DNA of 63,951 bases, counting the filler, from Reclinomonas americana ATCC 50394 (Eukaryota): NCBI GenBank assembly GCA_048213135.1. It is 43 parts of 43 records of this genome, joined end to end, with 100 filler letters (N's around TTAATTAATTAA, not from the genome) between each part and the next. Parts side by side here need not be neighbours in the genome. Positions count along the whole stretch, not along the records: positions 1,502 to 2,902 come from AFZH01025679.1; positions 3,003 to 4,402 come from AFZH01025680.1; positions 4,503 to 5,901 come from AFZH01025681.1; positions 6,002 to 7,401 come from AFZH01025682.1; positions 7,502 to 8,901 come from AFZH01025683.1; positions 9,002 to 10,401 come from AFZH01025684.1; positions 10,502 to 11,901 come from AFZH01025685.1; positions 12,002 to 13,397 come from AFZH01025686.1; 35 more parts are not named here. One strand, written 5' to 3'. A model generated the notes under the pieces. It made no database searches, was not told the origin of the DNA, and worked only from the letters and a program-made list of their open reading frames with translations. The position numbers and the translations under genes were made by a program. Below, in pieces: positions 1,654 through 62,220 of this stretch. Position 1 is the first letter of the stretch, and each line of letters begins with the position of its first letter.

Positions 1654-2902
1654 ATGGCCGACGAGGCTCCGCCTGCGTCTGCAAGTGAGGCGCCGCAGCC
1701 GTCGCCGACTGCATCGAGTGGCAGCAGTGCTGCGGCTCCTGTGGCCAGCGCGGCCGGCTTCCCCACACTGAGTGTGGACGAGTGTCGCGGCAAGTGGGAT
1801 ACCCCCGAAGTGGCTCTCATTGATCGATTTGCGCAAAAGTGCAGAGAACACGAGCAGCGCGTCTCGTCGCCGCACTGTTGCGCGACACTGCATGCGTGCC
1901 TGAAAAGCACAACAGCAGCCGTCTCATTGGTGTGTGTGTGTGTGTGTTTTGCAGTTGATGATTTCGCCGATGATTTGTCAATGTTGTATGCGGTGGTGGC
2001 GCTGTTGATGCCGCCAATGGACGGGCGGGGAGAGGGTGAGGTGCCGCCGCCGCTGCCGCCTGTGATTGATGCGGAGGCGGTGAATGTTGCACCGGCGACG
2101 CACTTGGGTGCCGTGCATCGTGCGCACTTGATGAAGAGCCTGGTGCCACGCACGGTGCAGAACCTGCTGCTGCGCCGGTATGCATGCACTCGACAGCTCA
2201 TGCTCTCCGTCGCTGTCTCTCCTGTGCTGATGTTGGTGTGTGTGTGTGCAGCACCAAAGCCGACGATGTGACGGCGGTGGAGGCCTTCATTCGCTTGGCG
2301 TTGCGCTTTGCGCAGGCGTGTACGGTGGAGTTCCTCCGACTTGCGCACGAGCCGCCGGCCACTCCTCTTGTTCACGGTGGGCGTACTCTTTTTGTGCAGC
2401 AGCAGCAGCAGCAAGTTTTGGCTTCCCTTGCACTCACCTCGCTTCGTGCAGCGGATGTGCGAGACATGGGTGTGAATGTCAGCTACCTGCTGGATGTGTT
2501 GGAGTACATTGGATCGCACCAGTCGGCGTTCTACTACCGCCAGCATGGTGTGTACGCGCACAATGCACGTCTGCTGCAGGCGCACGCCAAGGAGTACACG
2601 GTGGCGGTCGACGAGATTCAGGAGGGCTTCGGATCGTGGTCGCTCGACAAGTTCTTTGTGCCGACCTTCAAGTACGCCGTGGTGCGCGACACCAAGCCGT
2701 TCCTGCGCAACACCTCTGGCTACTTTATCGACACGCTGAACTACATTGGGCGTCTCGGCCTGTATCACCTGGTGGGCCGACTGTGCTTCTGCCCGCATTT
2801 CGCTCTCGACGTGGTGCTCCGTCTGCTGTTGATTGTCGGCCGCATGTGCGAGTACTTCCACGACCCGTTCACACAGTGGTACCTCGAGGCGCTCATGGAG
2901 CG
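1654..2902 (+). CDS. USP9/USP24-like ubiquitin carboxyl-terminal hydrolase, N-terminal part, spliced (introns 1877..1954 and about 2178..2251)
   Basis: GYFIDTLNYIGRLGLYHLVGRLCFCPHFALDVVLRLLLIVGRMCEYF resembles the USP9X/USP24 N-terminal helical region (GWLVDLxNKFGxLNGF...FGQCYEFL). Confidence 0.55.
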
Positions 2903-3002
2903 NNNNNNNNNNNNNNNNNNNNNNNNNNNNNNNNNNNNNNNNNNNNTTAATTAATTAANNNNNNNNNNNNNNNNNNNNNNNNNNNNNNNNNNNNNNNNNN
3001 NN

Positions 3003-4163
3003 CCCATTCCGCGAGACGAGGTGTCGCAGGGGTCCAGAGTGGGCCAGCGCTTGTGGCCGAGGCGTCTCGGCAGTCGACGATAGTGGTGGACGGCGGGCTC
3101 GCGGTGACGGAATGTGCCGGAGAGACTCGACCGGCGCCGTCTCCGGATCCGCACCACCACCACCACTAGACGTAGCTGGTGGCGGCGCTGGCGGCGGCAG
3201 TAGAGGATTGCGGCGAGACACAAGCGTGGGCGGTGGTGGCAGAGTCGTCGTCGTCGTTGTTGTCGTCGTCGTCACCGCAGCATTGTCGTGGTGCGGTGAG
3301 GCGGCCGTCGGTGTCGGCGCCGTGCTGTTGCTGAACCGCCGAGCCATGGCCGACACAGGCTGCCGCATCGTCGACGAATCCGCCCGCAACACACCCGCCG
3401 CCGCCGTCGCCGCCGTGGTCGGTGACACGGCATCACGCGGCGACTGCCGCCGCGCATGATGCAACGGCGACAAGTGCAGCACCGGCAGCCTCATCGTCGG
3501 CGTCGCCGTCGCACTGACCGCCATGGACGACGCCGCCGACATTACAGTCATCATCATTGTCGCGTCGTGGCCCTCCGACGACGGAACAATACCAGCCGCA
3601 TCTCCATCCGCCACACTCGGCAACACCGCCGCCGACGTCGACAACGACATGCGCCGCCTCTCCCATGCTGCTACTGGCTGCGGCGGAGGCGGAGGCGGTG
3701 GTGGCGGCGCCTGCACTGGTGGTGGCGACGGAGACGGATCTGTCTGATGCTGCACATGTGCATGCTGCATCACAACTTGCTGATGCAACTGCGACAGCAG
3801 CGTGTGCGGCTGCGGCTGCTGCTGCTGCTGCTGCTGCTGCTGTGGCTGACGATGCCCAGGGAAGCGAAACGAGGCCAGTTGTTGAGTGGACACTGGAGTC
3901 GGTGAGGCCGTCGACAAACGTCTCTGATATGAGAAATACGGATGATGATGGTGTTGTTGCTGTTGCTGTTGTTGATAGTGAAGTAGTAATGAGGCGGCGG
4001 TGGCTGTCGACTGTGCGCGGAGGCGGGAAGAAGAGGTGGGTGTGATGATCGTTGGTGAAATGCAACAAGAGACACACAAATTTAACAAACGCACGTGCTC
4101 GGCACCGGCTGTTGCAGCTGTTGGTCCAGGCAGTGTGCGCACTCGCCACGACAGTGGCTCCAT
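3003..4163 (-). CDS. Low-complexity Q/P/T-rich protein, 5' part (probable intron 4011..4094); allele or paralog of 9002..10177
   Basis: ATG at 4163; indels against the second copy are in-frame (polyQ/polyT length changes). Confidence 0.6.
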
Positions 4164-4502
4164 GGTGAGCGCGCGCGCGCGTCTGTCACACACACACACG
4201 CCCTGCGCGCTGGCACACAAGCACACACACGCACACACACGCAACCAGACACGTGCGCGACCACACCACACCTATGCGATAATAAACACACAATTTCGCA
4301 AATTGTTCGACGTTGCGCTTGTGTGTGTGCTAAGTCAAGACCGCTTTTGTCTCGCCACCCGCGACCACTTGCGGTTCTTTCTGCTATTCGCCTCTGTGGT
4401 GCNNNNNNNNNNNNNNNNNNNNNNNNNNNNNNNNNNNNNNNNNNNNTTAATTAATTAANNNNNNNNNNNNNNNNNNNNNNNNNNNNNNNNNNNNNNNNNN
4501 NN

Positions 4503-4749
4503 GTTCCAGTACGTCGTCGAGACCGAGCGTCGGTTCTATCTGGCCAATGAGGTCAACGTCGTACGCCGCGACACCGAGCACGACTTCTACTTCGAGATCT
4601 CGATGACCGACGTGTGGGTGTGGGACATCTACCGCGCCGACCGCTTCGTCAAGGCCGTGCGGGTGCTCACCTTCAAGGACGTCAATGTCGAGGAGCTCCA
4701 GCGGCGGGAGTTCGAGCTGCCGCAGGAGCTCTCGCTCGACGGCGAGTGA
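4503..4749 (+). CDS. DUF2469 family protein (actinobacterial), 3' part
   Basis: FQYVVETERRFYLAN...DVWVWDIYRADRFVKAVRVLTFKDVNVEEL; usual position upstream of yraN. Confidence 0.9.
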
Positions 4750-4853
4750 CGCCCTCTCTCCACAAGTCTCCGATCGGGGAGTTTCTCCCGAGGCGCCGGG
4801 ACCTTCTCTGATCCTCGCCGCCTCGTGCCGAGACCAGGCGCGAAGCTGTCGGC

Positions 4854-6413: not shown

Positions 6414-7401
6414 TTAGCGCACGCCGTCGGGCGACTCGCGACGTCTCCTCTTGCGCTCACGCTCCCGCGATCCACTGCGGCTGCGCGAGTTGCGGCTCCG
6501 ACTGCGTCGTCGTCTCGATCGCTCGTCATCTGCGCAGCAGCAGCAGCAATGTCATGAGAAAATCAGGCGACACTGATACAAGAATGCAGGCAGAGGAGAC
6601 GAGAGAAAGGAGGGTGTGTGGAAATCCAATCTTCCCCGGGTGAAATGCTGCGCGCTCAGCAATACCATCACGCGTGGCTAGGAATCGGGGTTGTGGCATG
6701 GCCAAGAGAAGAAGAATAAAGAAGAAGGAAAAAAGGAGAGGAGAAAATGTGCAGCAACGCACCTCCTCCACCGCTGCCGACTCCGTATTTTGCCTCCACC
6801 TCGTGGATTGCGTCTTCCAGTCGACGCATCAGCCCCGGGTCCTTCTTTGGTGGCGGCTTCACGACCGGGTTCTTCGACGGGTTGACCCTGTACGCCGAAT
6901 GGTGAGCAACACGAAACAAATCATCACTGGTGATCGCGACAAGCGTGCGCAACTTCATCGGGCGGTCGTGGAGCGTGCGTCCCGACAGACTCAATGCCGC
7001 CATGGCACCCTCTTGCATGAGGTACTCGACAAAGGCGTAGCGCGTGTTCTGCGTCAGATCGCCCGTCAGCTTGATAAACTCGACCGGACCGGCTGTGGTG
7101 AAAATGTCAATCAGCTCCTTCTCCGTCACATCCTGCGGCAGATTGCCCACATAAATAGTGCGCGCCACCTGCACGACGAGCAGCACGTGAGCATGCGAAG
7201 GGCAAGAAGAGAGAGAGGAGAGAATGGCCGACAAACCTGGTCACGACGAGGAGCAGCCGCCGGCGTCATAATGGAGGACGACGCCAAGGCTGCAGCCGCC
7301 AACGCCTGCTGCTGTTGCAGGAGGATCGCGGCCTGATGCTGTTGCTGCTGCACGAGCATCGCCATGGGGTTCATGGCGCCACCGGCACCCATCAGGCTCA
7401 C
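6414..7401 (-). CDS. SREK1/SRSF11-like RRM + RS-domain splicing factor, spliced, 3' part
   Basis: RTIYVGNL...VEFIKLTGDLTQNTRYAFVEY...DRPMKVNPSKNPVVKPP; last exon encodes RSRRRRSRSRNSRSRSGSRERERKRRRRESP, stop at 6414. Confidence 0.8.
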
Positions 7402-7924: not shown

Positions 7925-8086
7925 CGGGATTCCTGAACCTCTCCGTTCAGCGGGCTCTGCCCGCGTCGAGTATCGAGCCCCCGGCGCTGGGACGCCGAGG
8001 GCTCGGAGGGGCCGAATGGGGGATTCGACGTTGGTACGACCGCGCCACGAGGGAACCCGTCTCTCGACGTTCGTGGCGCGGCCGGG

Positions 8087-12001: not shown

Positions 12002-13328
12002 GTGGCCTTGAAGCGAGCCTCAGCGGCGTCGGACTCGGCGCGGTTCTGCTCCGACGACTCCTTCAGCTTCTGAATCTGAGCCTCGAGCTCGACCGTCTGC
12101 AAGTACTTTTGCTGCATCGGCTCGCGGAACTTGTTCAGGCTGTCGCGGATGGCGCGCTGCGACGACTTGAGGTCCTTCAGCGCCACGCTCTGCTCCTCCA
12201 CAAAGCTGCAAGAGGAGAGCGAGAGCGAGAGAGAGATCAGCATGCAGTTGTCACATCGGAGAAACCAAAAAAGGCGACTTAACTGCACATCCTCGCGGGC
12301 GTCCTTCAGGCGGCGCAGCTTCTTGATGGCCTGCTGCTCGGCAGCCGGGCTGGCCATCTCACCAGCGTTCATCATGGCCTCCAGCTCAGCAATAGTGCTC
12401 TCCAGGTGCTGCGACGACTTGAACTCGGTGCTCTTCTTGATCGAGGTGACGCGGTTGGTGATCTGCTTCTCCTTGGCCTCGAGCTCGTCGAGGGCGCCGC
12501 GCAGCTCATCGCGCTCCGCCTTGTGCGCCTTCAGCTGGTCGCGCAGCTCCTTGATCTGCTTGTTCAGCGGCTCAATGCGCTCGCGCACCTCGGCCGGCAG
12601 ACCCTTGCCGCCCTTGGAGGCCGGGCGAGACTTCATCCAGTTCTCGCGCACCGACTTGAGCTCCGCAATCAGCTGCTCGCGGCGGGCATCGCACTCCTTG
12701 CTGCGCGCCTCCAGGGCCTCGCGGTCTGGGCGCGCGTAGCTGCAACGAGGAAGAAGAGGGGGCGGGAGGTGTGTGTGAGTTCACACATGTCCATGGCGGG
12801 AAACCACCCGCACAAACCGAAACCTCGCTCTCTTCTCTTCACGTGTGTGCATGCAGCTTCGTTGCGAGTGCGTGCGTGTGACGCGCGCGACGACGGACAA
12901 GAGAAGCAAAGAGAGAGGCAAAAGAGTGCGGCAGAACCTCGTTTGTTTTCCCCGAGACGCGTGCCTGACGACATGCGGACATGTGCAAACCCCCCCGCAC
13001 ACACACACACACATAAACTCTCTCCCTCTCTTCCACTCACTCACCGCTTGGGCGCTGGCGGCTCGATCAGCGGATCGGGGAAGACAAAGTTTGCGCGCGG
13101 CGGGCGTGGCTGGCGAGGGCCACGGCCTGCGGCGGGCGCGGCGGCCGAGCCCGAAGCACCCGAGCCCGACGCACCGCCTTCCTCGGCGTCACCCGCCTCA
13201 GCCGCCACCGCGTCGGCGTCCTCCTCCTCGTCGTCGTCGACGCGCTCGTGCTCACGAGGGTCGTCGCCGAGCAGGTCGCTGGCGTCCAACTCCTCCTCGT
13301 GCACAATGGGGTCTTCTGAGCCCGACAT
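12002..13328 (-). CDS. Coiled-coil protein, Bfr1/proton-pump-interactor-like, spliced, 5' part
   Basis: ATG 13328; exon 2 RPDREALEARSKECDARREQLIAELK; FKSSQHLESTIAELEAMMNAGEMASPAAEQQAIKKLRRLK. Confidence 0.55.
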
Positions 13329-13841: not shown

Positions 13842-14589
13842 CTGTGACGGCAGGAATGTTGCAATGACATTCTGGCTCTGCAGCGGCAACAGCACGCCCT
13901 TGAACGGCCGCGCGGAAAAGTGTGCAATCTTGCCGAACTCATAGTCGACATTGAGCTCGTCGCTGTCGTTCTTGATGGTGAACATTATGTCGACGCGCTG
14001 ATTCGACGACGACTCGCCAAAGCGGAACGAGTTTTGCGAGAGGCTCAGTTTTGGTCGGTGGGCCTGAATCGAGCATGCAATGTGTGAGAGGCACGAATAC
14101 GGAAGGACACTCCCGCCAGGTCACAAACCTTGCCACTGGCCTTCACCACCAGCTGCTGGTCGGTCTCCAACACCGAGAATGTGAGGCTGGTGTTGAAATC
14201 CTCCACGTCGCTGCCGGTGGTCTGGCTCTTCCAGCCGGTGCGGTTCGACGGCTTGACGGGCGGACAGAAGTGGATCTGCACCGGGATCTGACCGTAGGCG
14301 GGAATGTTGCCCTCGTTTCTGTGCCGCATGGAGAGAGAAAGAGAGTGAGCTCCTCCTCCTTCTCCTCCTGCAGCACCCTGCAACATGCGACGCAACGGTT
14401 CGACAACATAAATGGGTTGCGGGTCTCCAGCCGAGGCACCTGGTTCCGAGCCGCCAGTGTCGATCTCGCCAGACATCAATTCGTCGGAAGAGGAGGTGAC
14501 AGCAAACGACGCGGCCGTGGGTGAGTTGTTGGCCAGGATGGCGGAAATGGTGCGGCTCTGTCCGTAGAATGCCGACGGGAAGTACAGGG
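13842..14589 (-). CDS. CFAP47: Cilia- and flagella-associated protein 47-like (ASH/Ig-like domains), internal exons
   Basis: IKNDSDELNVDYEFGKIAHFSARPFKGVLLPLQSQNVIATFLPSQ resembles CFAP47 (KNQCELLPVTYHFKKTANFEIDPEKGKI...FVPHQ); upstream FYGQSR..ILANNSP. Confidence 0.7.
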
Positions 14590-16495: not shown

Positions 16496-17750
16496 TCGGA
16501 GCCACATTGGTGATGGTGGTGAAGGATACGGTGGCGCCATTGATGGTGCTGGGGGTGGAGGTTACACCGACGGCGCGATAGTAGTACGTCCAGTTGCTCA
16601 CCAATCCAGTCAGTGAGGTGGTGACTGAAGTGACCAGAGAGCCGGTGGCGGTGAGAGCGGGGAATGTGGCCGACAACGTCTGCGACGCCAGCGAGAGACG
16701 TCGGATGATGTGCGTGGTGTAATCGGCAACCAGCACCGATGCCGTCGATGCATCAAATGCAACAAATTGCGGCGAGTTGAAGCGCGCCACGGTCAGTGCG
16801 CTACCGGCGGCTGAGCCAGTCACGCCCGCTGCGCCGCCGATCGTTGTCACCGCCGAGTCTGACAGTCGGAGTTGCCGAATGGTGTTGTTGGCAGACTACA
16901 GTCGCACGTCAGACAGAATCATGAAAAGAATGACGGCTCCGCATGGGGGGAGTGGGGGGAGATACACAACATCGGCGATATAGATGACGTTGTTTCCAGG
17001 TTCGTATGCCAGTCCGATTGGCGTGCTGAAGCGGGCAGCCGTTCCTGGTGTGCATCGATCAGTATGTATACAAACAATCACACTGAGTAGCCCATGGTGC
17101 ACTCACCGGTGGCATCTGTGGATCCAGACGCGCCGCTCGTTGAACCTGCCACCGTCGTCACCGTCATCGCCACCGTGTCAATGGTGCGGATGGAGTTGTT
17201 ATTGCGATCGACTGCACTCAAGCACACGAAAACGGAGATGAGAACGGGATGAACGGCATCTCTCTGCCTCCTCTCACACAGAGTGCTCACCAACATACAG
17301 CTTGGATCCGACGAGCAGCACGCCATTGGGACCACCGAATCGCGCCGTTCCCACACACGCGCCATCGGCAGTGCCACTCATGCCAGCAGTGCCGCAGAAG
17401 GTCGTCACCGCACCAGCGTAGGTCACTTGTCGAATGGTGTTGTTGAGCCAGTCGCCCACATACACCACTTGGTTCGTGGCATCCACCGCCACACCCGCAG
17501 GCTGACTGAACGAGGCTGCTGCGCCAGAGCCGTTGGCACTCCCCGACGCGCCGTTTCCCGCCAGCGTGGTGACAACGGCCGCCGCGGTGACGGCGCGTAC
17601 AGCGTGGTTCGTCAACTATGGGAGAGAGACGAAGAGTGCCAGAGTCAGCAAAATGCGTCAAGCTTTGATCATGCATGCCAGTATGCACACTCACATCGGC
17701 GACATACATCGTTCCCGTGGTTTGGTCAATGGCGAGGCCGGCAACACTGC
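16496..17750 (-). CDS. NHL-repeat beta-propeller protein followed by an FN3-like domain, spliced, internal
   Basis: TTLAGNGASGSANGSGAAASFSQPAGVAVD, ARFGGPNGV, ARFSTPIGLAY, ARFNSPQFVAFD; LTGLVSNWTYYYRAVG. Confidence 0.85.
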
Positions 17751-19859: not shown

Positions 19860-20564
19860 CTGCAAGTGCATGGCAAATGGCTGCTTCCCATGTCGCGACG
19901 ACTGCGTCAGGAACTGCACCGTCGTGCGTCCCTTGTACCCCGCCTGGTTCTGCTGCAGAGTGAAGAACGCGCAGTCCACTGCCTCCTTAACTCTGCACCA
20001 CCATCATCAACGAGTTAGACTCTCACGATGGAGACAAGTCCGTCATGTGTGCACGCAACTGGTGCCCGCCCACAGTTATGACAATGTCGACGCGCAGCTG
20101 TTGCGGCAACGCGAAGAGACGCCACGTCGCCGGTGTGAAGTCGAGTTGCACGTCGTACTTGTAGGGCGCCTGAGAGAGAGAAAGAGAGGTGAGTGCGTGG
20201 ACACATGATGTGTGCGTCGGGCAGCTAAGCGTACCGAGCACATGAAGCCCTCCTCGCCGAGTGGCAGCTGCGGCCGGAAGCACTTGTCCGAACTCTTCGC
20301 TGGCTTCCACAGCAGCTGCAGCACATCGCTGCCGAAGGGTGGCGGAGGAGGAGGAGGAGGCGATGCAGCAGAAGACAATGCCGAGGACACGACAGGCAGC
20401 GGCGGTGGTAGCGGAGGCAATGCTGCAGCTGGCAGCGGTGGTGGTGGCGGCATCAGCAAAACCTCCGGAAGTCCACCCAGCAGGAGAGGGTGAGGGAGCG
20501 GTGACGGCATCTCGTCAAAGCCAAACGAGCAAACATCCGGCCAAAGATCAGCGCTCCACGCCAT
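19860..20564 (-). CDS. Hypothetical protein with Pro-rich N-terminus and a beta-rich domain, possibly an Ig-fold DNA-binding domain; spliced
   Basis: ATG 20564 MAWSADLWPD; exons APYKYDVQLDF... and GRTTVQFLTQSSRHGKQPFAMHLQ bounded by GT/AG. Confidence 0.5.
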
Positions 20565-22680: not shown

Positions 22681-23869
22681 CTCACCGGCAAAACCTACAC
22701 CGTATTCGGCCGCGGTGGCGATCAACCGCAGCCCGGCATGGCCCAACGCGTGCTCAGTGCCGTCTTCAAGGCACTCAAAGTTGTGCCCTATGTCCCCCAT
22801 ATCCCCCTTTCGACCCTTCTCCCTGACTTCACCCACGCAGGAACGCAACGCCGCATCGCAGGCCCCCGCCGACATTCGCGTCTCCTTTGTGGCCATCAAT
22901 CCCGACTCGATGGAGGACCTGCTGACGCGCTCCTCACACGATCGACGCCCCTCGTCGGCCGCCATCTCGCCACTGAGTTCCGCCAGCACCACCTCGAGTG
23001 TCAGCGGTGGCGGGCGTCCGCGTTCCAGCTCACAGTCGCGCGATCGTTCGCCGTCGCTGAGCGGCGCTGCGCCTCCCGCGATGCTGCCGGGGTTGATTAG
23101 TGGTGCCGGTGCCGCATCATCCACACCCACGTCGTCGTCGACTCCTTCAGCGGCCGCCACCGCCGCCGCCGCCGCTGGTGGCAGCAGCAGTCAGCCGCTG
23201 CGCATTCGTGGCTCCACCGCACTCGGCTTCCACGTCGACGGCCTGACGCGCAAGGTTGTGCGCAATCCGAATCACGGCGTCGAGTTGCGTGCCTTTTCTC
23301 CTTCCTCTCATGTTTTTGCAGTTTTTGCTCAACACGTCGCCTCCCGCAGCCTCATCGCCAACTCACTGCACCGCGTAATGGAACGCGCACGGCGGCGACG
23401 CACGGGCGACGGCACGACACGACAGACGCACTACGTGTTCTCTGTGCACCTGCGGCAGTCGATTCCTCGCAGCAGCCACAACCTCCTCAGCACCTTCCAC
23501 CTGGTGGACTTGGCCGGCACCGGGCAGACCAAGGACAACAAGGACATTTTGACGCTCTCGCGCATCATTCTGTCGCTGAGCCAGGGCGGGACCATCAACC
23601 GCGCCGCCGTGCCCTTCCGAGAATCGAAGCTGACGTCGTACCTGCACAACGCATTTGGCGGAAACAGTCGGACGCTGATGATTGCGCACGTCGCACCGTC
23701 GACGGAGACTGGTAAGGAGACGCAGAACACGCTGCGGTATGCCGAGCAGGCGCGCCAGATTGTCAACTACCCACAAATCAACGAGTGCGAAGAGGAGATT
23801 GACGAGGGTCGAGTGCGTGCTCTGGAGAAGCGCATCGAGGACCTGGAATCGACACTAGACGACTACGAT
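22681..23869 (+). CDS. Divergent kinesin motor domain protein, spliced (introns 22780..22840, 23284..23349)
   Basis: P-loop TGKTYT, LVDLAG, VPFRESKLT, FGGNSRTLMIAHVAP, ETQNTLRYA. Confidence 0.92.
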
Positions 23870-32920: not shown

Positions 32921-34290
32921 GGGTCGCGAAGAAACAAGTGGTGGCGGGGAAGGGGCGGCGGCAGAGTATGTTGTGCGCGGACTGCTTCCGTTCGTGGTCA
33001 GCACTTGCCACGCAGGTGGCGACACCACGCCTGCGCCGTGTGTGTACGTGGGTGGTGGGGACGCAAAGAGTGGCCCGTTGGGCAGTTGTTGTTCGCGAGC
33101 GCCAAATGACTTGGCGGTGCCGAGCGGAACAGTGGTGGAGTGAGGTGGAGGCGCACTCGGACGGCGTGGTGGTGACTTGCCGGGTCGCGAGGCATTCCAT
33201 GAATCTGCGTGTACACACCCACCCATTCAGCAGCCCATCATGCATTCGTTTCCACCCCGCTCACACGTACCGTATGTGGACAAAATGTCGCGGTGTGCTG
33301 CGCGACTGGTCTCGCCGTCGCCCGACACGACCACACCACGCAACGACGACGACGACGACGACGACGAGCCGTCGGTGAGTGTCAGCGGCGATCGCGGGGA
33401 CGAGAACAGTGGACCACCCCGGGACTGTGGAGGTGTTCCGGCACCGGCTGTGCGCGCATGCGAGAAGGGGGATCAGGCACAGTAGCGACGATCATATCAC
33501 GGACAAAGACAACGCAACTGGCCAGCAGCGCGTCCTGCAGAATGTTCTTGATACGCGAGGCCGACTCCTCCGGTGAGAGGTTGCGCTGGCCGGGGTTGGC
33601 GAGCTCGACCGACAGTGCACTCAGCGTCTGCTTCAGGTGCTCCAGCTGCTGGTTGGTGGCAGCGGGCGATGGCGACGACGCAGGCGGAATGGCGGGGCCT
33701 GGCGACAGTGGCGACATGTGCCCAGGTCGAGTGACTGTCGACGATAATCGACCTCCACTGCGCTCCAAATTGAACGTGGTGGAGTCGGCGACGCCGGCGG
33801 GCAGCGCCGAAAACGTGACCACCGTCGACGATCGCGCTTCCGGTCGGCTGCTCAACCCGTTCGACTCACTGGCGGCAGACGATTGCGGCGACTGACGCTG
33901 CCGCGAAGGGGCGCGCAGTCGCTGCACAGTCGAGTGCGGCAGTGGTGGGGGCGAGAGGCTGTGCGAGAGTCAGCAAACACGAGTCAAGGAGGCACACCAC
34001 GCACGTGCGTGCGCGCAACTGAATCGGCGGTCCTCCACTGGCAATATCGCGCAGGCGCGCAGCACGGTCACGCTCCTCCACCAACTCTTTGCGCAAAATG
34101 TCTAGCTCGCGCTTGTTGTTCTCCAGACCGCGCTGCAGACGCATAATGGTCTCCGACGAGTCCGCCAGCGTCGGCAAGAATCCGCTGTCGCGATACGTGA
34201 GCGGGTCTGGCACTGACTCGCGCCTCCCACCGCGAGGCATCGACCACGAGTCGTCGTAGTCGGTGGCCAAGTCACCGAGCGACATTGGTC
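32921..34290 (-). CDS. Disordered protein with short coiled coils, spliced, internal; allele of 46306..47667
   Basis: IMRLQRGLENNKRELDILRKELVEER; SNPs against the second copy include synonymous changes in the predicted frame, and an 8-nt indel lies in an intron. Confidence 0.6.
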
Positions 34291-48009: not shown

Positions 48010-48944
48010 GCCGCACCCCACTCTACTGGGCCGTGTACGATCAAGATATGATCATGGTCAACATGCTCATTTCACAACGAGTTACATCCACCTCCTTCCC
48101 TCCCCTTGCCCCTCATCAGCCTTTTCACTCACATCCGTCGCAGATCGTCCTCAACTCCCGCGACAAGAACAACCACACACCACTGTATTGGGCCATTGAG
48201 AAGCAGAATCTGGCGATCACCGGTCGCTTGCTGGAGGCCGGCTGCTCCGCCAACTGGAGTGATTTGCAAGGCCGTTCGCCCCTGCACTGGGCCGCCGCAT
48301 TCGGTCATGTTGCGTGCCTTGAGCGCACCTGCACATTCCTTCCTTTTACCTCATTCTTCTCCTTGACAGCCGGACATGTGTCGCCTCCTCCTCGGCCAGC
48401 ACGGTGACGTGAACGCCACCGACAACGAAGGCAGTACGCCACTGCACTTTGCCTGCTTGAAAGGACACACGGAAGTGGTGCGAGTGCTGCTGCAAGCTGG
48501 TGCCATGTCGGAAAGACGTGACGCTCAAGGCCGCTCACCATTCCTCAACGCCTGCTACGGCGGTCACATTCGAATCGTCGAGCTGCTGTTGCACACTGAT
48601 GCGCAGGTTTCGTCGTCGATTTAACGGCTCATTTCCTTGTTGCGGTGCCTTGTTCATTCCTGCTTCTGCGCAGCCGCATGCACAAGACAATGCTGGCCGC
48701 ACTGGTCTCTGCTGGGCCGCTGTGGGAGGCCATTTGACGCTCGCCAAGAATCTACTCACCATCGGCGCCAACATTGAGCATCGAGACAATGACGGTGCTG
48801 TGCTTCTGTTACCAGCTCGTTCTTCATACTTGGTTCTAATGTGGTGTTTGCGCAGGACGTTCGCCGCTCTATTACGCCATTCTGAGTGGTAACATTGAAT
48901 GCGTGCGCCTGTTTGTGGAAAAGCACGCGGAAATCAACATGGAG
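48010..48944 (+). CDS. Ankyrin-repeat protein, spliced, internal
   Basis: TPLYWA, GRSPLHWAAAFGH|PDMCRLLL, GSTPLHFACLKGHTEVVRVLLQAGA. Confidence 0.95.
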
Positions 48945-51434: not shown

Positions 51435-52232
51435 GGTCTGGCCAGCGTAAACAGAGTGGCCATGGTGTGTTGCGTGTTATGAGCAGCGCAGCGTTGTTGC
51501 TTGTTTGTTCGCTGGTGAGTGAAGGAAGGTACGAGTTGAGTTGCAAAACTCGAGAAACCAACCCACACCGCTTGAAACGCACGATGTCGCGTGCGGTGCT
51601 CAGCAAGTGGATCAGACGATCAGCTGGTGCATATCCATGAAGCGCTCACATCGTCCTCTGACCTCATATCCATGTTCTGCATCGTGTCGCCACACGCACA
51701 GGCAGTGGAGGTGAGCGACACGGAAAAATGTGTGCTTGTTAGTGTGGGGAGGAATGTGAAAAAGTGTACCCACGTGTCGTTAATAACGTTGCACGCTCGC
51801 TGCGCTGCGCGATGCTTTCCACCGCAGAGAAAGACGCCAAACAAATCCACAGCTGTACACTTCCGATCTCATGTCGAAGGGAACGACCTGAGTATGGTCT
51901 CCTCTGTCACCCTGCCGGCCTTGAACGACATCTCCACCGTATTCATCAGCAGGTGTTCCATCAGCATCAGGAACTCCTCGTACTGCACACACACTCGGGT
52001 AAGAAGAAGAAGAAGAAACAAGAAAATGAACACACAGCATCGACAACGCAACGTCCACACGCGTGTCGCGATCCTTGTCCACCGCTGCCAGAGTACACGC
52101 AAAAAGCGATCAGACACGATGCATGTGTGNNNNNNNNNNNNNNNNNNNNNNNNNNNNNNNNNNNNNNNNNNNNTTAATTAATTAANNNNNNNNNNNNNNN
52201 NNNNNNNNNNNNNNNNNNNNNNNNNNNNNCGT

Positions 52233-52335: not shown

Positions 52336-53610
52336 CTGCAGCAGCGTGGTGATGTATGCCGAGAAGATCTCGGTCACCTGCGGCTCAAAGTGCACCAGCA
52401 GGCCCTGCACGAACTCGAACGCATTGCGACGGCGAGTGTCGGCATCGCTGCCCTCCAAGTCCTTGCGAATGTACTCCACAGGACTGTCCTCGAACAGCTC
52501 AATGTCGTCATCCTGCGCGGCGAGCATTTGAGGCAACTGAAGACACAAAGGGGATGAACGCGTGCATTCACTGCACACCTGCAGGCGGAGGTTGGGAATG
52601 ACCACCAGTTCGCAGATACTTCTCAGCGTGTCAGCATCCGCGAAGAGCGTGTGGTGGATGCTCTTGGCCACCGTGTTGAGGAAGCGAACCGAGAGTGCCA
52701 CCAACTGCACATGAAGCGGCGTGAAGAGTGAGCAGTCAATAACAGTCGTGAGCTCCTCCCCCACGACAAACCTTATTGTACTTGGACTGCATGCCGGCAG
52801 ACGAGAGCAGGCCCCACACGTCGCCGACAAACTCAGGGAGTGCCTCCTCAAAGTCCTCTGCGTACTTGTCGTACAGCAGGTTGATGTTGTCGAGCACGGA
52901 GCACTTGACCTCTTCCACCAGGCCGGGCACGTCGTCGTCCTGCAAAGAACGAGGAGAGGATAAGGAGGAGGCTGAAGAAGAAAAAGAAGAATGAGAGAGC
53001 AGTGGACTGTCGTACCTGTGTGTCCATCAGCGGGTTGGCGTACTTCAAGAACTTGAGGAACTCGGCGAGGTACTCCTTGATGTGCTCCTCGAAACACAGG
53101 TCCTGGTGGGTGGACAGGGCTGAGAATAAGGGGTGCGGGTTGTGGTGAGAGCAGTGGAGAGGCTCGTCACGCACCTGCCAGTTCAGCGAGAACCAAATGC
53201 GCATGAGCAGTCGATAGCAGCGCAGGAGAATGTCGAGAGCGGCCGGGTTCTGTGCCTGCTCATCGATAAACTTGGAGACACCCTGCATACAAGAGGTGAG
53301 TCGACGGAGTGTGCAACAGTCCACCTTTTGAGAATCGCGCACACACCTGGACCATCATCAGCATCGGCTCCTGCCACTGATCTACAATCCACTTGAGATC
53401 CGTGTGCAGCTCCTCGCTCTCGAAGGCATGGCGGAATCTGCGGCGCGCACGAGGTCAGTTCCAACGGGTCCACTGCGGGGAAACAGAGGCGACACTCACC
53501 GCTTGAACACTGCGTTCGCCGTGACGAGCACGCCCCAAATGACGTGGAAGTCCTGCGAGTCGCACTTGGAGAGCAGTTCCTGCACCGAGCGGAGAGTTGG
53601 TGACACACAA
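52336..53610 (-). CDS. CSE1: Exportin-2 (Cse1/CAS), internal exons
   Basis: RIWFSLNWQDL.FEEH; NINLLYDKYAEDF; ICELVVIPNLRL|DDDIELFEDSPVEYIRKDLEGSDADTRRR. Confidence 0.95.
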
Positions 53611-56667: not shown

Positions 56668-57655
56668 TCGCCGTCAACGGGATGGCGTTGTTGGCGCCGG
56701 CCAGATTCGTCTCCACGTTCGTGTACGTCAGGCCGGTCGGGGCCTCGTTGACTGTGCGTCAACAACCCGTAAGTCCTTCTCAACCGGGATGCACACGTTC
56801 ATCACCCACGCGCAGCGTGCGTGCACGCAACTCTCGGTCAGCGTGAACGTCTGATCAAAGAACAACAAAGAGTAGCTGGAGTCGGCGGCGCGAATCGTCA
56901 CCGACACGTTGCCGCTGATGCTGGCGGCCGAGCCGCGCACCAAAAAGTAGGTGCTACCGACCTTGGAGACGGTGAATGCGTTGGCCACGGACTGCGAGTT
57001 TACCGTCGGTACGTTGATTTTGAGGGCGGCGGACGAGTCGGGATCTGCGGCGGTGGGGTGGAGTAAGGGAGAGAGGGACGAAGAGAAGAGAGAAGGGAGG
57101 GGGAGAAGAAAGGGGGAGAAGGGAGGGAGTAAACACGCACACATATACACACATGCGCCGCACCAGTGATGGTGATGGTGGCCACGGATGCACCCGAAGC
57201 CGATGTGCGGCTGTAGGTGGTGGTGGAGAGCGTGATTGCCGAGGGTGGATTATTCAGCAAGATCGTTGTCGTGAGAGTAGAGCTCGTCAGCGCCGGTGTG
57301 CTGCGGAAGTGCGAGAGGTAAGCCGTGCGATACATGCACACGTGCCGGCAACACTCGACGAGAGACGCAACCCGCTGTCTTGTGCATAGGTCTTGACAAC
57401 GAGGCTGCCCACGACAGGCCCAAGCAGCGTGTCGGAGGGGTACAGTCCGGTGCCGCTGATGGCAAAGAGGAAATTGTTGCCTTGCCCATCGGCCAGCACG
57501 TATGTAATCGTCTGCGTCGTATTCGCGTCGGTGGCCGAGTAGGTGCCAAGGAGAGTCGAGCTGGGGACGCCGCCGGTCACCAACGGCAGGAACCCGCTGT
57601 CCTTCAGTGGCTGGAACACGGCCGTGAATGCCAGGCCGGTGGGCGCGATATTATC
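56668..57655 (-). CDS. Cadherin-like repeat surface protein, spliced, internal
   Basis: DNIAPT...LGTYSATDAN..TITYVL..NNFLFAISG; NNPPSAI; DPD; VTIRAADS; INEAPT linkers. Confidence 0.75.
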
Positions 57656-58197: not shown

Positions 58198-59252
58198 CCC
58201 CTGGTCACTGGGTCGAGCTCCGAGGCCTCGGTGGACGAGGAGAAGCGGTTGCATGCACTCGACGATGAGAACCACGAGGTGATTGTGGCTATGTGTGTGG
58301 AGTTGGCGCGGCAGGCGCGTGAGGAAGCCGAGCGCAAGCTGCGTGAACGACGACGCAAGATGATCAAATGCGACGGGTGTGGCGCGCTGCTCGACGGTCA
58401 GTGTCGGACCGCTCACCTCGAGTTTGGTGATGTGCTGAATGCTTTTTGTGCGTGTGTGTACAGATGGCGATGCATTCCAGATGCACTGCGGCGAGGTTGA
58501 GCACAGCGACGATTTCATGTACACGTGCTCGGAGGTGGAGATTGTGGAGGCTGGCGACGATGCGCCACCCGAGGATCGACTTGACTTGACGTCACCGAAT
58601 GTGTTTCCTTTCTGTTGCGTCCCTCTCTTCTTCATCTTCTTCTGTGTAGATCTGCTGCTCACGAGTGTGTGCGCGACACAGACAACACCTACTCACAGGT
58701 CAGTCGCACAGCAGCGCATTCACGTCGATCCCAGTCCCCTCACATCCCTTTAACTGCAGCCATTTTCGAACTTTTTCGCCTCGCCAGTCACGATCGATGG
58801 ACTCGAGTTCCCCACGGTCGAGCACTTTTGGTGCGTGTGCACTCGCTCTGCACTCTCTTGTATCTTACCACACATCATCACTCCTCCCCTCCGAATGCAG
58901 GCAATGGAGCAAGTACGCCGCCGGCAACGCGGCGATCGCAGAGAGCATCCGCACCGCAAAATCGGTGGACGACGCTCACCAACTCGGCGGCGCGCCCAAC
59001 GAGGGTCTGCGGGAGGACTGGGACGACGTCAAACGCGACATTGCTCTCACGGGTCTGCGCGCCAAGTTCACGCAGCATGCTGAGCTGGCGGCGCAGCTGT
59101 TGGAGACGGGCGACAAGCAGCTCGTGCTCCTCGATACCAATCTCTGGGCGGGTATCAACGCCGGCAGTGGCATTCCCGTCGGCAAGAACACCATTGGTCA
59201 GCTGCTGGAGATTGTGCGCGGTGAACTGCGTGCCGCCGTTGCTGCTCCGTGA
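58198..59252 (+). CDS. OTU1/YOD1-like C-terminal region + C2H2 zinc finger fused to a NADAR (YbiA-like) domain; exons 58198-58396, 58464-58613, 58682-58698, 58760-58830, 58901-59252
   Basis: Spliced frame PLV...CVELARQAREE...IKCDGCGALLDDGDAFQMHCGEVEH (C-x2-C-x12-H-x5-H), then FYNTYSQPFSNFFASPVTIDG..FPTVEHFWQWSKY...REDWDDVK...AKFTQH..L...LLETG...GKNTIGQLL. Confidence 0.82.
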
Positions 59253-59641: not shown

Positions 59642-59765
<124 letters not shown>

Positions 59766-60634: not shown

Positions 60635-60947
60635 TTACACGAATGCAATTCCAGGCAACTCGGGAATGACCGTCTGCTTGGGTGCTGGATTGCAATTTAA
60701 CCCATAGCAGGGGAAACGCCCCTCTGTGGCCACCTGCAGGCAGCAACGGCAGAACCCCGCGCGACAGCCTTTGCAGCTGTAAATGAACTGCGCATACGAG
60801 GTATCTGAGCCTAGTTGCATGCGCAGGTTGAGAAGGAAATTGTGAGAGTCAAACCTTGCATCCCTCCTTCGTCTCCACGATGAGGCCGCAGTTTGGGCAA
60901 GCGCGAATTGTGGGAACGAGGGTCTCTGCGGGCAGGCCGATGACGCT
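60635..60947 (-). CDS. RBR-type E3 ubiquitin ligase RING2/Rcat domain, last exons (intron 60788..60854)
   Basis: Spliced IRACPNCGLIVETKEGCK|FIYSCKGCRAGFCRCCL...C...C.PAPKQT. Confidence 0.75.
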
Positions 60948-61192
60948 CTGTGGATGAAAGTCTGAGTCCTAATCGCTGCATCTCTCTCTCTCTCTCTCNN
61001 NNNNNNNNNNNNNNNNNNNNNNNNNNNNNNNNNNNNNNNNNNTTAATTAATTAANNNNNNNNNNNNNNNNNNNNNNNNNNNNNNNNNNNNNNNNNNNNAC
61101 CTATGCAAAGGAGAGATGATCGCAAGATGAGCGCGAGTGAATCTACTCGCGCGCGCGCGCGCGTGTGTGTGTGTGAGGAGAGACAACTCGCC

Positions 61193-61267
61193 AGTGGTGA
61201 GCATCGTGGAGATGACGGTGAAGGGTATCTTGTACTGCTCGTACAGCGTGCTCAAACGGTTCCACAT
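61193..61267 (-). CDS. Hypothetical protein, first exon
   Basis: MWNRLSTLYEQYKIPFTVISTMLTT, followed by GCGAGT (possible GC-type donor) and a (CA)n intron-like tract. Confidence 0.35.
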
Positions 61268-61363
61268 CGTCGCAGCGATGGGCGCACAACCACGAACTGG
61301 CAAAGGACGAAATGCAACGAGAGGACTCCGCTCTTTATGACTGCATGCTTCTCTTCCTCCTTC

Positions 61364-62220
61364 TCACGGCCATCCCGGGATGCCACTCCACACACGCGCA
61401 CGATACGCCGCATGCTCGGCGCCAAAGAACTTGCCCAGCATCTCCTCCTCGTCCCTGTCGCAAGCAGACAAGTGAGAAGCTTCGATATCTCTCTCCCACA
61501 CCTGCTGCTGAGCGCACAACGCAACTCGAGACGATCGGTGAAGAACCTCCACAGCACGTAGGCAAAGCCGAGTGTCGACACCACATTGTGCAGCATCACT
61601 TGCAGGCCGACGGCGAAGAGCAGGAAGCCGAGGTAGCCCGGATGCCGCACGAATCTGCATGCAATCACGGGGCATGAGACAGGACGGCGGCAGTGAGAGG
61701 GCGCGCACGCAGTGCAAGAGAGAGAGAAAGAGACCTGTAGATGCCCCAGGTGACGAGTCGATGCTTCTGGCGCTTCTCGTATTGCACCTGCCTCGGCGAT
61801 GAGCACAACAACAACAACAACAACGATCACGTGGATGCGCGCGCGCGCTCACTCACCAGGTGCGTAAAGTTGTGCTTGGCCGTGACCATGCCGACCTTGC
61901 GCAGCAGCTCGCCGACCACCGCCATTGTCAATCCCAAGTAGAAAATGGCATCGACGTGCTTCAGCGACGGCCACATCCACTCGGTCGCCACAAACTCGCT
62001 CACACCACACGACACCGCAAACGTGTACGGCCACGTGATCAGCGTCGCTGTGCATGTGTGTGATTGATTGAGAAGGGCATGCACACACACTCTCTTTCAT
62101 GCACATGACGCAACAGTCCCAGCTCAGCTGCTCTGGGTTGTAGGCCCACACCAGCAGCACCTCTCCCGCGTGGAAGAACACGAGAATCGCAAAGAACAGC
62201 CACAACACCGACAAGTCCAT
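61364..62220 (-). CDS. ICMT: Protein-S-isoprenylcysteine O-methyltransferase (Ste14/ICMT), complete, 5 exons
   Basis: GELLRKVGMVTAKHNFTHL|VQYEKRQKHRLVTWGIYR|FVRHPGYLGF...WRFFTDRL|EDEEEMLGKFFG.EH..YRARVWSGIP. Confidence 0.95.

Follow-up and report, generated by a model that had tools for sequence, protein, structure and literature searches.

Short introns that open with GTTGCGT and follow an exon base other than G form a second donor class in gene fragments of Reclinomonas americana

Do the short introns of the protist Reclinomonas americana that seem to begin with GTTGCGT form a donor class of their own, and, if so, where are they cut and how might their starts be recognized? This question was addressed using the window, i.e., the whole stretch of 63,951 nucleotides that was analyzed, which consists of 43 unrelated contigs of 1376–1401 bp each with N44-TTAATTAATTAA-N44 linkers between them, and thus represents several loci, not one. 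Three of the 43 contigs are of bacterial origin. The presence of GTT-class donors in these gene fragments was confirmed: approximately half of the short introns open with GTTGCGT, preceded by an exon base other than G, as against the usual G/GTRNGT (a slash marks the exon–intron or exon–exon junction). All 16 donor strings listed in an earlier first-pass annotation were recovered, each at its position and on its strand.

The motif is both enriched and oriented. GTTGCGT occurs 30 times in the window, as compared with 11.5 times (SD 3.4, maximum 19) in 100 dinucleotide shuffles. Where the coding strand of a contig is clear, GTTGCG is found 28 times in sense and 13 times in antisense; such a strand bias is absent for GTTGAG (6 sense, 6 antisense). 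In an initial gene parse, which was given GT, AG, and codon usage alone and no donor model, GTTGCG was found at 7 of the 27 short YAG-ending introns (binomial p = 3e-9, the background being its occurrence at 0.88% of all GT sites). A donor-aware parse, whose learned donor matrix could inflate the number of GTTGCG sites and cannot encode a dependence between positions −1 and +3, gave 43 introns, of which 12 were left out and two duplicates were counted once before the classes were compared. The curated sets, which are small and partly made by hand, contain 20 GTT[GA] donors (class II) and 21 other donors (class I). The donors do fall into two discrete classes comparable in size, (A>T>C)/GTTGCGT and G/GT[GAT]NGT. 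The individual introns are given in Table 1.

Table 1 Introns and associated features in the window (positions along the whole stretch; FPA, first-pass annotation)
Position	Strand	Class	Length (nt)	Gene or product	Junction sequence	Basis and remarks
1877..1954	+	II	78		CACT/GTTGCGCGAC	Initial parse without donor model
6888..6953	−	II	66, in frame	Directly 3′ of RRM domain	TGAA/GTTGCGCACG	Low interior coding score; not forced by frame
12206..12283	−	II	78, in frame		TGCA/GTTAAGTCGC	Donor string; U1 duplex; not forced by frame
14319..14396	−	II	78		AACC/GTTGCGTCGC	Initial parse without donor model; absent from FPA
16896..16970	−	II	75		CGAT/GTTGTGTATC...CTGTAG	Frame needs intron; weak flanking coding scores
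18485..18550	−	II	66		CTCA/GTTACGTGCA	Gene parse; absent from FPA
19993..20059	−	II	67		ACCA/GTTGCGTGCA	Gene parse; absent from FPA
22780..22840	+	II	61	Kinesin	CAAA/GTTGTGCCCT	Gene parses; in-frame GT 12 nt downstream (22792) is an alternative
23284..23349	+	II	66, in frame	Kinesin	TCGA/GTTGCGTGCC	Gene parse; not forced by frame
33448..33518	−	II	71		GCCA/GTTGCGTTGT	Frame needs intron; motif in both near-identical contigs (copy on contig 32, 46825–46895)
33959..34019	−	II	61		TTCA/GTTGCGCGCA	Called by both gene parses; frame needs intron; copy 47336–47396; absent from FPA
40580..40746	+	II	74 or 167		ACCA/GTTGCGTGAA	Gene parses; acceptor uncertain
45178..45246	+	I	69	Glycogen branching enzyme (HPEWL/DFPR)	TTG/GTGAGTGACT	Exons align to adjacent 4bzy_A residues 549/550
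45403..45469	+	II	67, phase 0	Glycogen branching enzyme (SHH/TYVSRKH)	CAC/GTTGCGTGTG...CACAG/A	GBE profile and 4bzy_A collinearity
48081..48143	+	II	63, phase 0	Ankyrin	CGA/GTTACATCC	Removal gives 33-residue spacing; retention adds 21 non-repeat residues
48309..48369	+	II	61, phase 0	Ankyrin (GH/PDMCRLLL)	CAT/GTTGCGTGCC	Repeat spacing
48607..48673	+	I-like	67	Ankyrin	GCAG/GTTTCGTCGT	+3 T, −1 G; spacing of 33 retained
51983..52052	−	II	70, phase 0		GGAC/GTTGCGTTGT...GTGCAG/T	EF-hand-type loop; absent from FPA
52705..52771	−	I-like	67	Cse1	TAAG/GTTTGTCGTG	+3 T, −1 G; KYNK/LVALS alignment to 1wa5_C
56752..56831	−	II	80, phase 1	Cadherin-like repeat (FTLTE/INEAPT)	GAGA/GTTGCGTGCA	Frame needs intron; repeat profile
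57301..57371	−	II	71, phase 2		GCGG/GTTGCGTCTC	−1 G; frame needs intron; repeat profile (weak); absent from FPA
58614..58681	+	II	68	NADAR	TTCT/GTTGCGTCCC...ACACAG/A	Spliced product
58682–58698	+		17	NADAR		Micro-exon
58699–58759	+			NADAR	GTCAGT	Intron following the micro-exon
61455..61525	−	II	71, phase 2	ICMT (RLE/DEEE)	TCTCGA/GTTGCGTTGT...GACAG/G	Exact P0121; sole alternative is a 1-nt slide giving the same mRNA
61655..61734	−	I	80	ICMT	CAG/GTCTCTTTCT	P0121 reproduced; one GT-AG among 6 equivalent slides
61788..61856	−	I	69	ICMT	CTG/GTGAGTGAGC	P0121 reproduced; one GT-AG among 5 equivalent slides
62048..62114	−	II	67, phase 1	ICMT	GGGACT/GTTGCGTCAT...CACAG/C	Sole donor/acceptor pair within ±15 nt yielding P0121

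The position of cleavage can be read from several proteins. Splicing of the ICMT gene (contig 42) reproduces the EST-derived protein P0121 in full (189 of 189 residues), with its stop codon; this match fixes the donors T/GTTGCGT at 62114 and A/GTTGCGT at 61525, and at 62114 cleavage before the G of GTT is proved at the protein level. In the glycogen branching enzyme (GBE) gene, a profile of 69 full-length homologues gives 252.2 bits, free of gaps, for the donor at 45403, versus 247.2 bits for the GC donor and 245.0 bits for the downstream GT, and this junction is collinear with residues 596–604 of the human GBE1 chain 4bzy_A. All six repeat spacings in the spliced ankyrin product are exactly 33 residues. 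The first-pass annotation had regarded junctions in these genes, and one in the NADAR gene, as fixed by protein conservation. In the NADAR gene, splicing yields NVFPF-YNTYSQ-PFSNFFASPVTIDGLEFPTVEHFW, and a Pfam NADAR match lies downstream of the intron at 58614. For the class I-like intron of the Cse1 gene, an alignment, as we read it, places KYNK/LVALS against KYDI-LVSKS of the yeast Cse1p chain 1wa5_C (residues 304–312); exon 4 alone gave no PDB match. The RRM_1 profile match stops at the 6953 donor. Splicing at 52052 joins DKDRDTRVD/YEE into a 12-residue EF-hand-type loop, whose spacing supports this additional donor. The GC donor 3 nt downstream was excluded or lower-scoring at every site tested.

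A rival explanation is that the junctions are misplaced (the true donor being the GC in GTT/GCGT, or another GT), or that a T was over-called during sequencing of GTGCGT. The GC alternative does preserve the frame at all sites; the margins of the repeat profiles are small at 57371 (33.5 versus 31.5 bits, 2.0 bits) and at 56831 (18.1 bits versus 16.8 for the GC alternative, 1.3 bits, from homologues only); and the reading frame is compatible without splicing in five class II introns, which are in frame, have no internal stop, and are thus not demanded by the frame. However, the GC donor adds residues absent from P0121 at both ICMT junctions, is 5 bits worse in GBE, and disrupts the ankyrin period, one spacing becoming 34. 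As for an over-call, the GTT motif is present in both members of two independently assembled contig pairs that are 98% identical, and no link to the −1 base would be expected from such an error. The donor at 46895 had been called an allele of that at 33518; the near-identity (98%) holds, and the two copies lie on separate contigs. This explanation is already contradicted at 62114, 61525, 45403, and 48309, and for the class as a whole it is barely credible.

A clear contrast is seen between the two classes at the last exon base. Among the 20 curated GTT[GA] donors, −1 is A in 12, T in 4, C in 3, and G in 1; G thus stands there in 1 of 20, but in every one of the 21 other donors (Fisher p = 8e-11; 1/22 versus 23/26, p = 4e-9, with the doubtful dropped rows restored). 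The earlier claim that ordinary donors here mostly have G at −1 agrees with these counts, and its counterpart, that class II never has it, is nearly true: G is absent from −1 throughout the 16 listed sites, and 57371(−), which lies outside that list and is weakly supported, is a probable exception, the single GTTGCGT donor following G. Four +3-T donors after G are of a different type (GTTTGT at 7236, 52771, and 14128; GTTTCGT at 48607). These sites behave like ordinary donors, and the duplex predicted at 48607 is in the canonical U1 register via the exon CAG. Farther into the exon, class II has C9 A6 G5 at −2 before its A12 at −1 (n = 20), and class I has C8 at −3, A11 at −2, and G21 at −1 (n = 21). 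The top exon dinucleotide is CA in both registers, with six sites in each class; the full CA before G is found at 6/20 class II sites, and T, C, or G at −1 in 8/20.

On the intron side, +5 is C in 17/20 class II donors and in 5/21 at the matching class I position (p = 1.3e-4), and class II has G at +6 in 19/20 and T at +7 in 16/20. GTGCGT occurs once among the 21 ordinary donors, whereas GTTGCGT dominates class II. These counts, together with the unbiased GTTGAG, speak against the earlier description of class II as ordinary donors with one extra T. Beyond the donor, the classes are alike: the median intron length is 71 nt in class II and 67 nt in class I, the composition and a CTCAC/CTGAC-like branch motif are common to both, and the 3′ end is CAG in 19/20 and 20/21, respectively. 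Class II introns are shown to be U2-type GT-AG introns of the ordinary short kind; cleavage falls exactly in front of the first G in GUUGCGU, and only the 5′ signal sets them apart.

Such a shared start might also reflect common descent, class II introns being copies of a single mobile "introner"-type element or products of a single recent intron-gain burst, and not a class with its own recognition. Two differences found post hoc would fit this, namely, phase 0 (5/19 class II versus 14/21 class I, p = 0.014) and an ACAG 3′ end (10/20 versus 2/21, p = 0.006). Nevertheless, the similarity of class II introns ends after the first 8 nt, and their sizes are just 61–80 nt. An all-against-all blastn of 41 intron interiors gave 12 rows, i.e., six distinct pairs, every one between class II and class I and over merely 12–17 nt, e.g., (GT)n or (CT)n. 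Complementarity between an intron's own ends shows no excess over that with other introns' ends (means −7.39 and −7.28 kcal/mol). Common descent is thus very improbable, and conservation of a heptamer in an otherwise randomized intron would imply selection by the splicing machinery.

Pairing with U1 was examined by ViennaRNA duplexes against AUACUUACCUG as the U1 5′ end, a standard sequence that is assumed and may not be the host's. Class I donors give −4.3 to −11.5 kcal/mol, all 21 of 21 in the canonical register; of the 23 GTT[GA] sites, 21 fall between +0.7 and −2.5 kcal/mol, and the remaining two are at −5.1 and −5.6; class II pairing is predicted to be very weak in every register. In the minimum-energy duplexes of the 23 class II sites, G+1 lies on C9 in 6, on C4 in 9, and is unpaired in 7. 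Since G+1 is on C9 in only 6/23, energetics alone do not select a shifted register; a strong fit to standard U1 in the shifted register is seen at one site alone, CA/GTTAAGT at 12283 (−5.6 kcal/mol). An Rfam search of the window gave no U1, U6, or U5 gene at the gathering score or E ≤ 1.

The class II signal may be viewed as the usual CAG/GU.. consensus moved one base into the intron (CA/G-UUGCGU). From this displacement, we propose that the first recognition step would occur in a +1-shifted register, perhaps through a U1 that has co-evolved, a reading toward which we lean with modest confidence. G+1 would then lie opposite U1 C9, A−1 and C−2 opposite U10 and G11, U+3 opposite A7, and G+6 and U+7 opposite C4 and A3, and the cleavage bond would be set later, by U6/U5 at GU. 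The shifted U1 register had been put forward in the first-pass annotation, with a variant U1/U6 snRNA for a second intron class as its alternative; the displaced exon preference agrees with the shifted register, whereas the fit to standard U1 is poor. Because G+4 and C+5, both invariant, are a poor match to standard U1, as is the mismatched U+2, and because C+5, G+6, and T+7 are kept despite near-zero duplexes, the version with a variant U1 is slightly favored within the shifted-register explanation: a co-evolved copy (5′ arm complement ACGCAAC) might exist beside a standard U1 for the G/GURNGU class.

The motif can also be written as GU + U + GCGU, and standard U1 might accommodate it with G+1 on C8, U+2 on A7, and the extra U (+3 or +2) bulged, so that GCGU pairs as in GUGCGU and the same bulge stays opposite the U6 ACAGA box, where G+6/U+7 would pair only with one nucleotide looped out. 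Both shifted registers and bulges at +3 (or +2) are reported as proven at human 5′ splice sites in PMC4856993, whose Table 3 predicts 68 sites with bulge +2/+3 and 51 with bulge +3 among 201,541. Here, however, the −1 base would face C9, and G would be expected as in class I but is found in 1/20; the one-base move of the exon preference is exactly what the shifted register predicts and the bulged one does not. In addition, the presumed parent motif GTGCGT is rare, GTTGAG is unbiased by strand, and none of the 23 minimum-energy duplexes folds in this way. We therefore regard a bulge as quite unlikely.

The near-zero duplexes at most class II sites would also suit recognition independent of U1 pairing, with UUGCGU read directly by a protein or by U6/U5. 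We know of no protein that reads UUGCGU, which counts against this. The lack of G at −1 would then reflect a general trade-off between intron-side and exon-side signal strength: the intron side is more invariant in class II, and the −1 G is invariant in class I. A trade-off of this kind would predict relaxed exon bases, not a consensus moved by one position (CA before G), and ordinary sites would pair with ACAGA at least as well as GUUGCGU, unless the latter is shifted by one base. U6 ACAGA pairing versus U5 loop 1 pairing is offered as the explanation of the 5′ splice-site trade-off in PMC11732430. Recognition of this sort is unlikely.

For the shifted-register and variant-U1 explanation, U1 RNAs of other protists are counted as precedent. 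In bioRxiv 10.1101/2022.06.08.495308, GUUUGU(U) donors of Entamoeba are described as pairing with the U1 sequence AACAAAC; the U1 of Mastigamoeba has ACGUAC, and Physarum carries both standard and modified U1 candidates. The interpretation given in the first-pass annotation is partly supported, and the GTTGCGT class points to an unusual mode of intron-start recognition in this protist.

Based on their donor sequences, the introns of the window can be separated into two classes: 20 introns starting with GTT[GA], mostly as GTTGCGT after a non-G base (class II), and 21 introns with donors of the G/GTRNGT type (class I; the slash marks an exon-intron boundary). These 41 introns, collected from 64 kb, form the curated set. 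The starting set was a donor-aware parse of 43 introns, in which two allelic duplicates were counted once. From this, 12 doubtful introns were dropped, among them those at 44843 (a donor name is the window position of the first intron base), contradicted by homology, and at 62274, contradicted by a cDNA-derived protein; 12 introns were added, four of them from the first-pass annotation. All 16 GTT donor strings listed in that annotation were found at their positions.

Base composition of the two donor classes in the curated set
Position	Class II (n = 20)	Class I (n = 21)
−3		C 8
−2	C 9, A 6, G 5	A 11
−1	A 12, T 4, C 3, G 1	G 21
+3	T 20 (by definition)	G 12, T 4, A 3, C 2
+4	G 17	T 8, A 7, C 5, G 1
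+5	C 17	G 17
+6	G 19	T 14
+7	T 16

A clear association is seen between the class and G at position −1 (p = 8e-11), and it persists when the dropped introns are restored (1/22 versus 23/26, p = 4e-9). The earlier statement that the GTT donors always follow a non-G base thus holds for 19 of the 20 class II introns, the donor at 57371 being one probable exception. Four donors with T at +3 do follow G: three GTTTGT and one GTTTCGT. They were assigned to class I because they keep G at +5 and T at +6, or a full exon CAG, and fold in the canonical register; the one at 52771 is collinear with yeast Cse1p, and that at 48607 fits the ankyrin period.

Apart from the donor, the two classes are similar. 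The median length is 71 nt in class II and 67 nt in class I, and the composition, the CAG ending and the branch-like motif are alike. All 41 introns end with YAG (19 CAG and one TAG in class II; 20 CAG and one TAG in class I), and a YTVAY branch-like motif, located mostly 8–40 nt from the 3′ end, occurs in 18 of the 20 class II and all 21 class I introns. The branch-like motif and the pyrimidine-rich region before YAG are those of U2-type introns. The ICMT, GBE (glycogen branching enzyme) and ankyrin genes each carry both classes. In U12-type introns, the donor motif is /RTATCCTT and a branch site TCCTTRAY is located near the 3′ end; like class II, they stand beside the main class, vary less in the 5′ motif and do not require G at −1. 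However, assignment of class II to the U12 type was rejected: the 5′ end is GTTGCGT, the 3′ regions resemble those of class I introns, and the class is far too abundant. When the 41 intron interiors were compared by blastn, 12 rows (six distinct pairs) were obtained, all between a class II and a class I intron and 12–17 nt long; the whole-intron similarity among copies that marks introner-like elements was absent, and this origin was rejected. Euglenid-like pairing between the intron ends was also rejected, as it showed no excess over the control level. Two small differences were seen post hoc, both with small n: the 3′ end is ACAG in 10 of 20 class II and 2 of 21 class I introns (p = 0.006), and phase 0 occurs in 5 of 19 and 14 of 21, respectively (p = 0.014).

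The position of the cut can be fixed by proteins. A search with the ICMT exon gave a single match, P0121, an EST-derived 189-residue ORF in EukProt, and contig 42 spliced at four introns yields P0121 in full, with all 189 residues and the stop codon identical. At 62114, GGGACT/GTTGCGTCAT...CACAG/C is the sole donor-acceptor pair within ±15 nt that works; at 61525, TCTCGA/GTTGCGTTGT...GACAG/G works, either as GT-AG or with a 1-nt slide that leaves the mRNA identical. At both of these P0121 junctions, the cut is made at GU, as would be expected of shifted-register sites, in which the frame set by U1 begins one base further downstream. The two further ICMT introns are ordinary (CTG/GTGAGT and CAG/GTCTCT). 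A GC donor located 3 nt downstream (GTT/GCGT) was considered as an alternative wherever possible, since it always keeps the reading frame. In ICMT, it would add residues that P0121 does not have. For GBE, the profile built from 69 full-length homologues gave 252.2 bits without gaps for the GT donor at 45403, against 247.2 bits for the GC site and 245.0 bits for the next GT; the junction is collinear with human GBE1. The closest GBE relatives show 54–59% identity. In the ankyrin gene, removal of the introns at 48081, 48309, 48607 and 48795 results in six repeat spacings of exactly 33 residues each, and the GC alternative changes one of them to 34. The scores for the contig 39 gene, taken from a homologue-only realignment of the repeat profile, favor the GT donors weakly: 33.5 versus 31.5 bits at 57371, and 18.1 versus 16.8 bits at 56831. 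This realignment replaced query-anchored repeat profiles because of their seed bias, in which seed a favored model a (181.0 versus 173.8) and seed b favored model b (182.4 versus 178.9).

It was also found that removal of the GTTGCGT intron at 52052 creates DKDRDTRVD/YEE, a 12-residue loop which we take, from its general pattern, to be of the EF-hand type. The ICMT, GBE, ankyrin and Cse1 junctions have the GT and AG ends and the restored frame or protein of U2-type GT-AG introns, and those of GBE, ankyrin and Cse1 are collinear with homologues or with the repeat spacing. A metagenome scan for P0121 relatives gave 81 pattern matches, none of which was confirmed. An alignment of six unrelated window exons gave no match at E ≤ 10 among 745 word-sharing candidates, a result that does not imply absence of further EST-derived proteins, as the alignment was gappy.

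The heptamer GTTGCGT itself is overrepresented: it occurs 30 times in the window against 11.5 ± 3.4 (maximum 19) in shuffles, while the values for GTGCGT are 72 and 58.3 ± 6.8. Overrepresentation of 7-mers in the window is, in general, dominated by microsatellites. In the first pass of a dynamic-programming gene parser, whose input was limited to codon usage, GT, AG and intron length, 7 of 27 short YAG-ending introns started with GTTGCG (binomial p = 3e-9); this hexamer is found at 64 of the 7240 GT sites window-wide (0.88%). Enumeration of intron candidates by coding score alone gave 4045 candidates. Half of the GTTGCGT heptamers (15 of 30) are at accepted donors, five are in coding or antisense sequence, six outside the curated set are followed by pyrimidine-rich, intron-like sequence, and the other four are ambiguous. 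Some of the further sites run off a contig end or precede a start codon, and these may be UTR introns. The heptamers at 4245 and 10257 are preceded by G.

The window of 63,951 bases does not represent a single locus: its 43 contigs (1376–1401 bp, in descending size) are joined by linkers, so that gene adjacency across them has no meaning. Pfam was queried with 263 stop-free ORFs from the six-frame translation. The genes on contigs 4, 6 and 26 are of bacterial type and intron-free; these contigs probably represent contamination of the assembly or bacteria associated with the organism, and were excluded from the intron analysis. The remaining contigs carry fragments of eukaryotic genes (WD40, RRM, kinesin, NHL, TMEM43, CFAP96, CFAP65-like, glycogen branching enzyme, ankyrin, Cse1, NADAR, ICMT, protein kinase and copia gag), which indicate a GC-rich flagellate with short introns. 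Two contig pairs, with 95–99% identity, are uncollapsed haplotypes or recent duplicates. Both GTTGCG donors are retained in each copy of the pair 23/32; the donor previously called an allele is on one of these contigs. Microsatellites of the (CT)n and (GT)n types abound (TCTCTCT, 499 versus 96 expected), often at contig ends, and probably account for the high fragmentation of the assembly. The contig 39 protein shows up to 30 matched stretches per relative; its exon has 325 representative relatives at E ≤ 1e-3, all at most 46% identical, and no Pfam match. A protein atlas search returned generic 2OG-Fe(II) clusters alone. The in-frame, stop-free intron of the Cse1 gene is visible only through the alignment with yeast Cse1p on either side (349/350), and introns of this kind are missed by ORF-based reading. 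No snRNA gene was found in the window with Rfam, either at the gathering score or at E ≤ 1.

Coordinates of features in the window
Feature	Position (strand)	Remark
Linkers (examples)	1402–1501, 2903–3002	N44-TTAATTAATTAA-N44
Contig 4	4503–5901	DUF2469, UPF0102, ChlI
Contig 6	7502–8901	CN_hydrolase
Contig 26	37388–38775	POTRA and Peptidase_M50
Contigs 3/7	3003–4402, 9002–10401	Near-identical pair
Contigs 23/32	32921–34311, 46306–47688	Near-identical pair
Contig 15	20987–22373 (−)	GC 0.48, more AT-rich; copia-type gag with CCHC zinc knuckle
Microsatellites (examples)	18717–19385, 49268–49400, 59623–59700	
Contig 39 gene	56669–57778 (−)	Cadherin-like repeat protein
NADAR micro-exon	58682–58698 (+)	17 nt; YNTYSQ with split codons; between 68-nt GTTGCGT and 61-nt GTCAGT introns
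Cse1 in-frame intron	~52513–52578 (−)	66 nt; CAG/GTGTGC...CAG/GAC
Introns dropped	2320, 17882, 18151, 19859, 22486, 41853, 44557, 44843, 47818, 57163, 58379, 62274	
Introns added, first-pass annotation	6953, 12283, 16970, 48081	
Introns added, other	52052, 45178, 61856, 61734, 44372, 17290, 58699, 14128	
GTTTGT after G	7236, 52771, 14128	Class I
GTTTCGT after G	48607	Class I
GTTGCGT, coding or antisense	69, 22849, 30945, 33344, 46721	
GTTGCGT, further candidates	36163 (+), 60011 (−), 16331 (+), 25497 (−), 4245 and 10257 (−)	

The donors were folded with the standard U1 5′ end, AUACUUACCUG (standard 5′ sequence, ACUUACCUG), from which the organism's own U1 may differ. Each of the 21 class I donors pairs canonically, with energies between −4.3 and −11.5 kcal/mol. 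The GTT[GA] sites give only +0.7 to −2.5 kcal/mol in 21 of 23 cases, with no consistent register; the outliers are CA/GTTAAGT (−5.6 kcal/mol, shifted) and 57371 (−5.1, exon side). The minimum-energy partner of G+1 at the 23 sites is C4 in nine, C9 in six and C8 in one, and G+1 is unpaired in seven. The idea that these sites are ordinary donors with one extra T is not supported by their composition: C follows the [GA] in 17 of 20 class II donors against 5 of 21 in class I (p = 1.3e-4), GTGCGT occurs once among the ordinary donors, and GTTGAG has no strand bias. On the exon side, the commonest dinucleotide is CA both before G+1 in class II and before G−1 in class I (six each), and CA/GUUGCGU would correspond to CAG/G.. 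with the frame displaced by one base. The exon consensus moves with the motif, in agreement with the shifted register that has been described for rare sites in humans (PMC4856993). A bulge at +2/+3, in which G at −1 pairs with C9 and G+1 with C8 and one U is looped out, would also accommodate the additional U. However, this register is disfavored because it would still favor G at −1 (PMC4856993, in the part available), and G is present there in one of 20 introns; such a duplex was found at none of the 23 sites. The earlier interpretation is partly supported: a shifted frame is the best fit to the exon statistics, but an ordinary donor plus T that is read by the ordinary U1 agrees with neither composition nor energetics. 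A near-invariant heptamer that the standard U1 hardly binds suggests a dedicated partner; a U1 arm of ACGCAAC(UG), for example, would pair over its full length with (CA)GUUGCGU.

Shifted-register 5′ splice sites in mammals (Roca and Krainer 2009, cited in PMC4856993) share two features with class II: they are GU-type sites cut at GU, and the exon often ends with CA. Their best U1 complementarity lies one base downstream of the canonical frame, with G+1 in place of G−1, and class II may follow them in this. CA/GTTAAGT at 12283 is the textbook form of such a site. In humans, however, these sites are rare and atypical, all validated noncanonical registers together making up 1.5% of 5′ splice sites (PMC4856993), whereas class II nearly equals the ordinary class in size (20 versus 21 curated); moreover, GUUGCGU pairs poorly with the standard U1 even when shifted. 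The sites using the bulge +2/+3 register (Roca et al. 2012, cited in PMC4856993) also consist of GU with an additional U followed by a pairing block, but their position −1, opposite C9, would favor G, as opposed to one G in 20 here. Among Archamoebae, Entamoeba pairs GUUUGU(U) with a U1 of AACAAAC, Mastigamoeba has ACGUAC in U1, and for Physarum both standard and modified U1 candidates are reported (Roy and Bowser, bioRxiv 10.1101/2022.06.08.495308). As here, these are +3-U donors departing from GUAAGU; there, a changed U1 arm matches them. According to the available part of that source, 88–90% of the Entamoeba introns use one motif in the normal register in an intron-poor genome; in contrast, two classes occur here at about 1:1 in the same genes, the second being offset by one base. 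The exon-side and intron-side classes of PMC11732430 resemble the present ones in that a strong G at −1 and a strong intron side are anti-correlated at about 1:1, and this anti-correlation possibly adds to the loss of G at −1 here. Those classes share a register and overlap, whereas class II differs by an inserted base, a heptamer that is almost invariant and an exon consensus that is shifted, with no intermediates observed. The diplonemid donors, given as (G)/GTATG in the accessible part of PMC12621601, are unlike GTTGCGT.

The observation of the first-pass annotation is thus confirmed and extended, with more sites, transcript-level proof for two of them and a refined class definition, and it is of high interest to splicing specialists. 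A search for the GTTGCGT donor class found no description, with figure-only logos and supplements invisible to it; among the matches listed, the string elsewhere was a primer or unrelated. The U1 5′ arm usually has the standard sequence in the species examined, and the human 5′ splice sites tested use mainly one register. To our knowledge, reports of a co-evolved U1 are limited to intron-poor genomes dominated by a single motif. In the available part of PMC4856993, shifted and bulged registers are rare exceptions, described for mammals only. A tentative proposal, which we consider doubtful rather than probable, is that the major spliceosome of this organism contains two parallel recognition systems: the standard U1 would serve G/GURNGU, and a putative second U1 or U1-like RNA, whose 5′ arm would pair with (CA)GUUGCGU in a frame one base off the cleavage site, would serve an equally large class, both being interleaved within genes. 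Gene finders that use a single GT-position matrix would miss or misplace roughly every second donor of this genome. A free-living, intron-rich protist with about half of its introns on an offset, near-invariant GUUGCGU would offer a natural experiment for asking how the choice of the cleavage bond is made independent of U1 pairing, and whether two U1 specificities can exist side by side.
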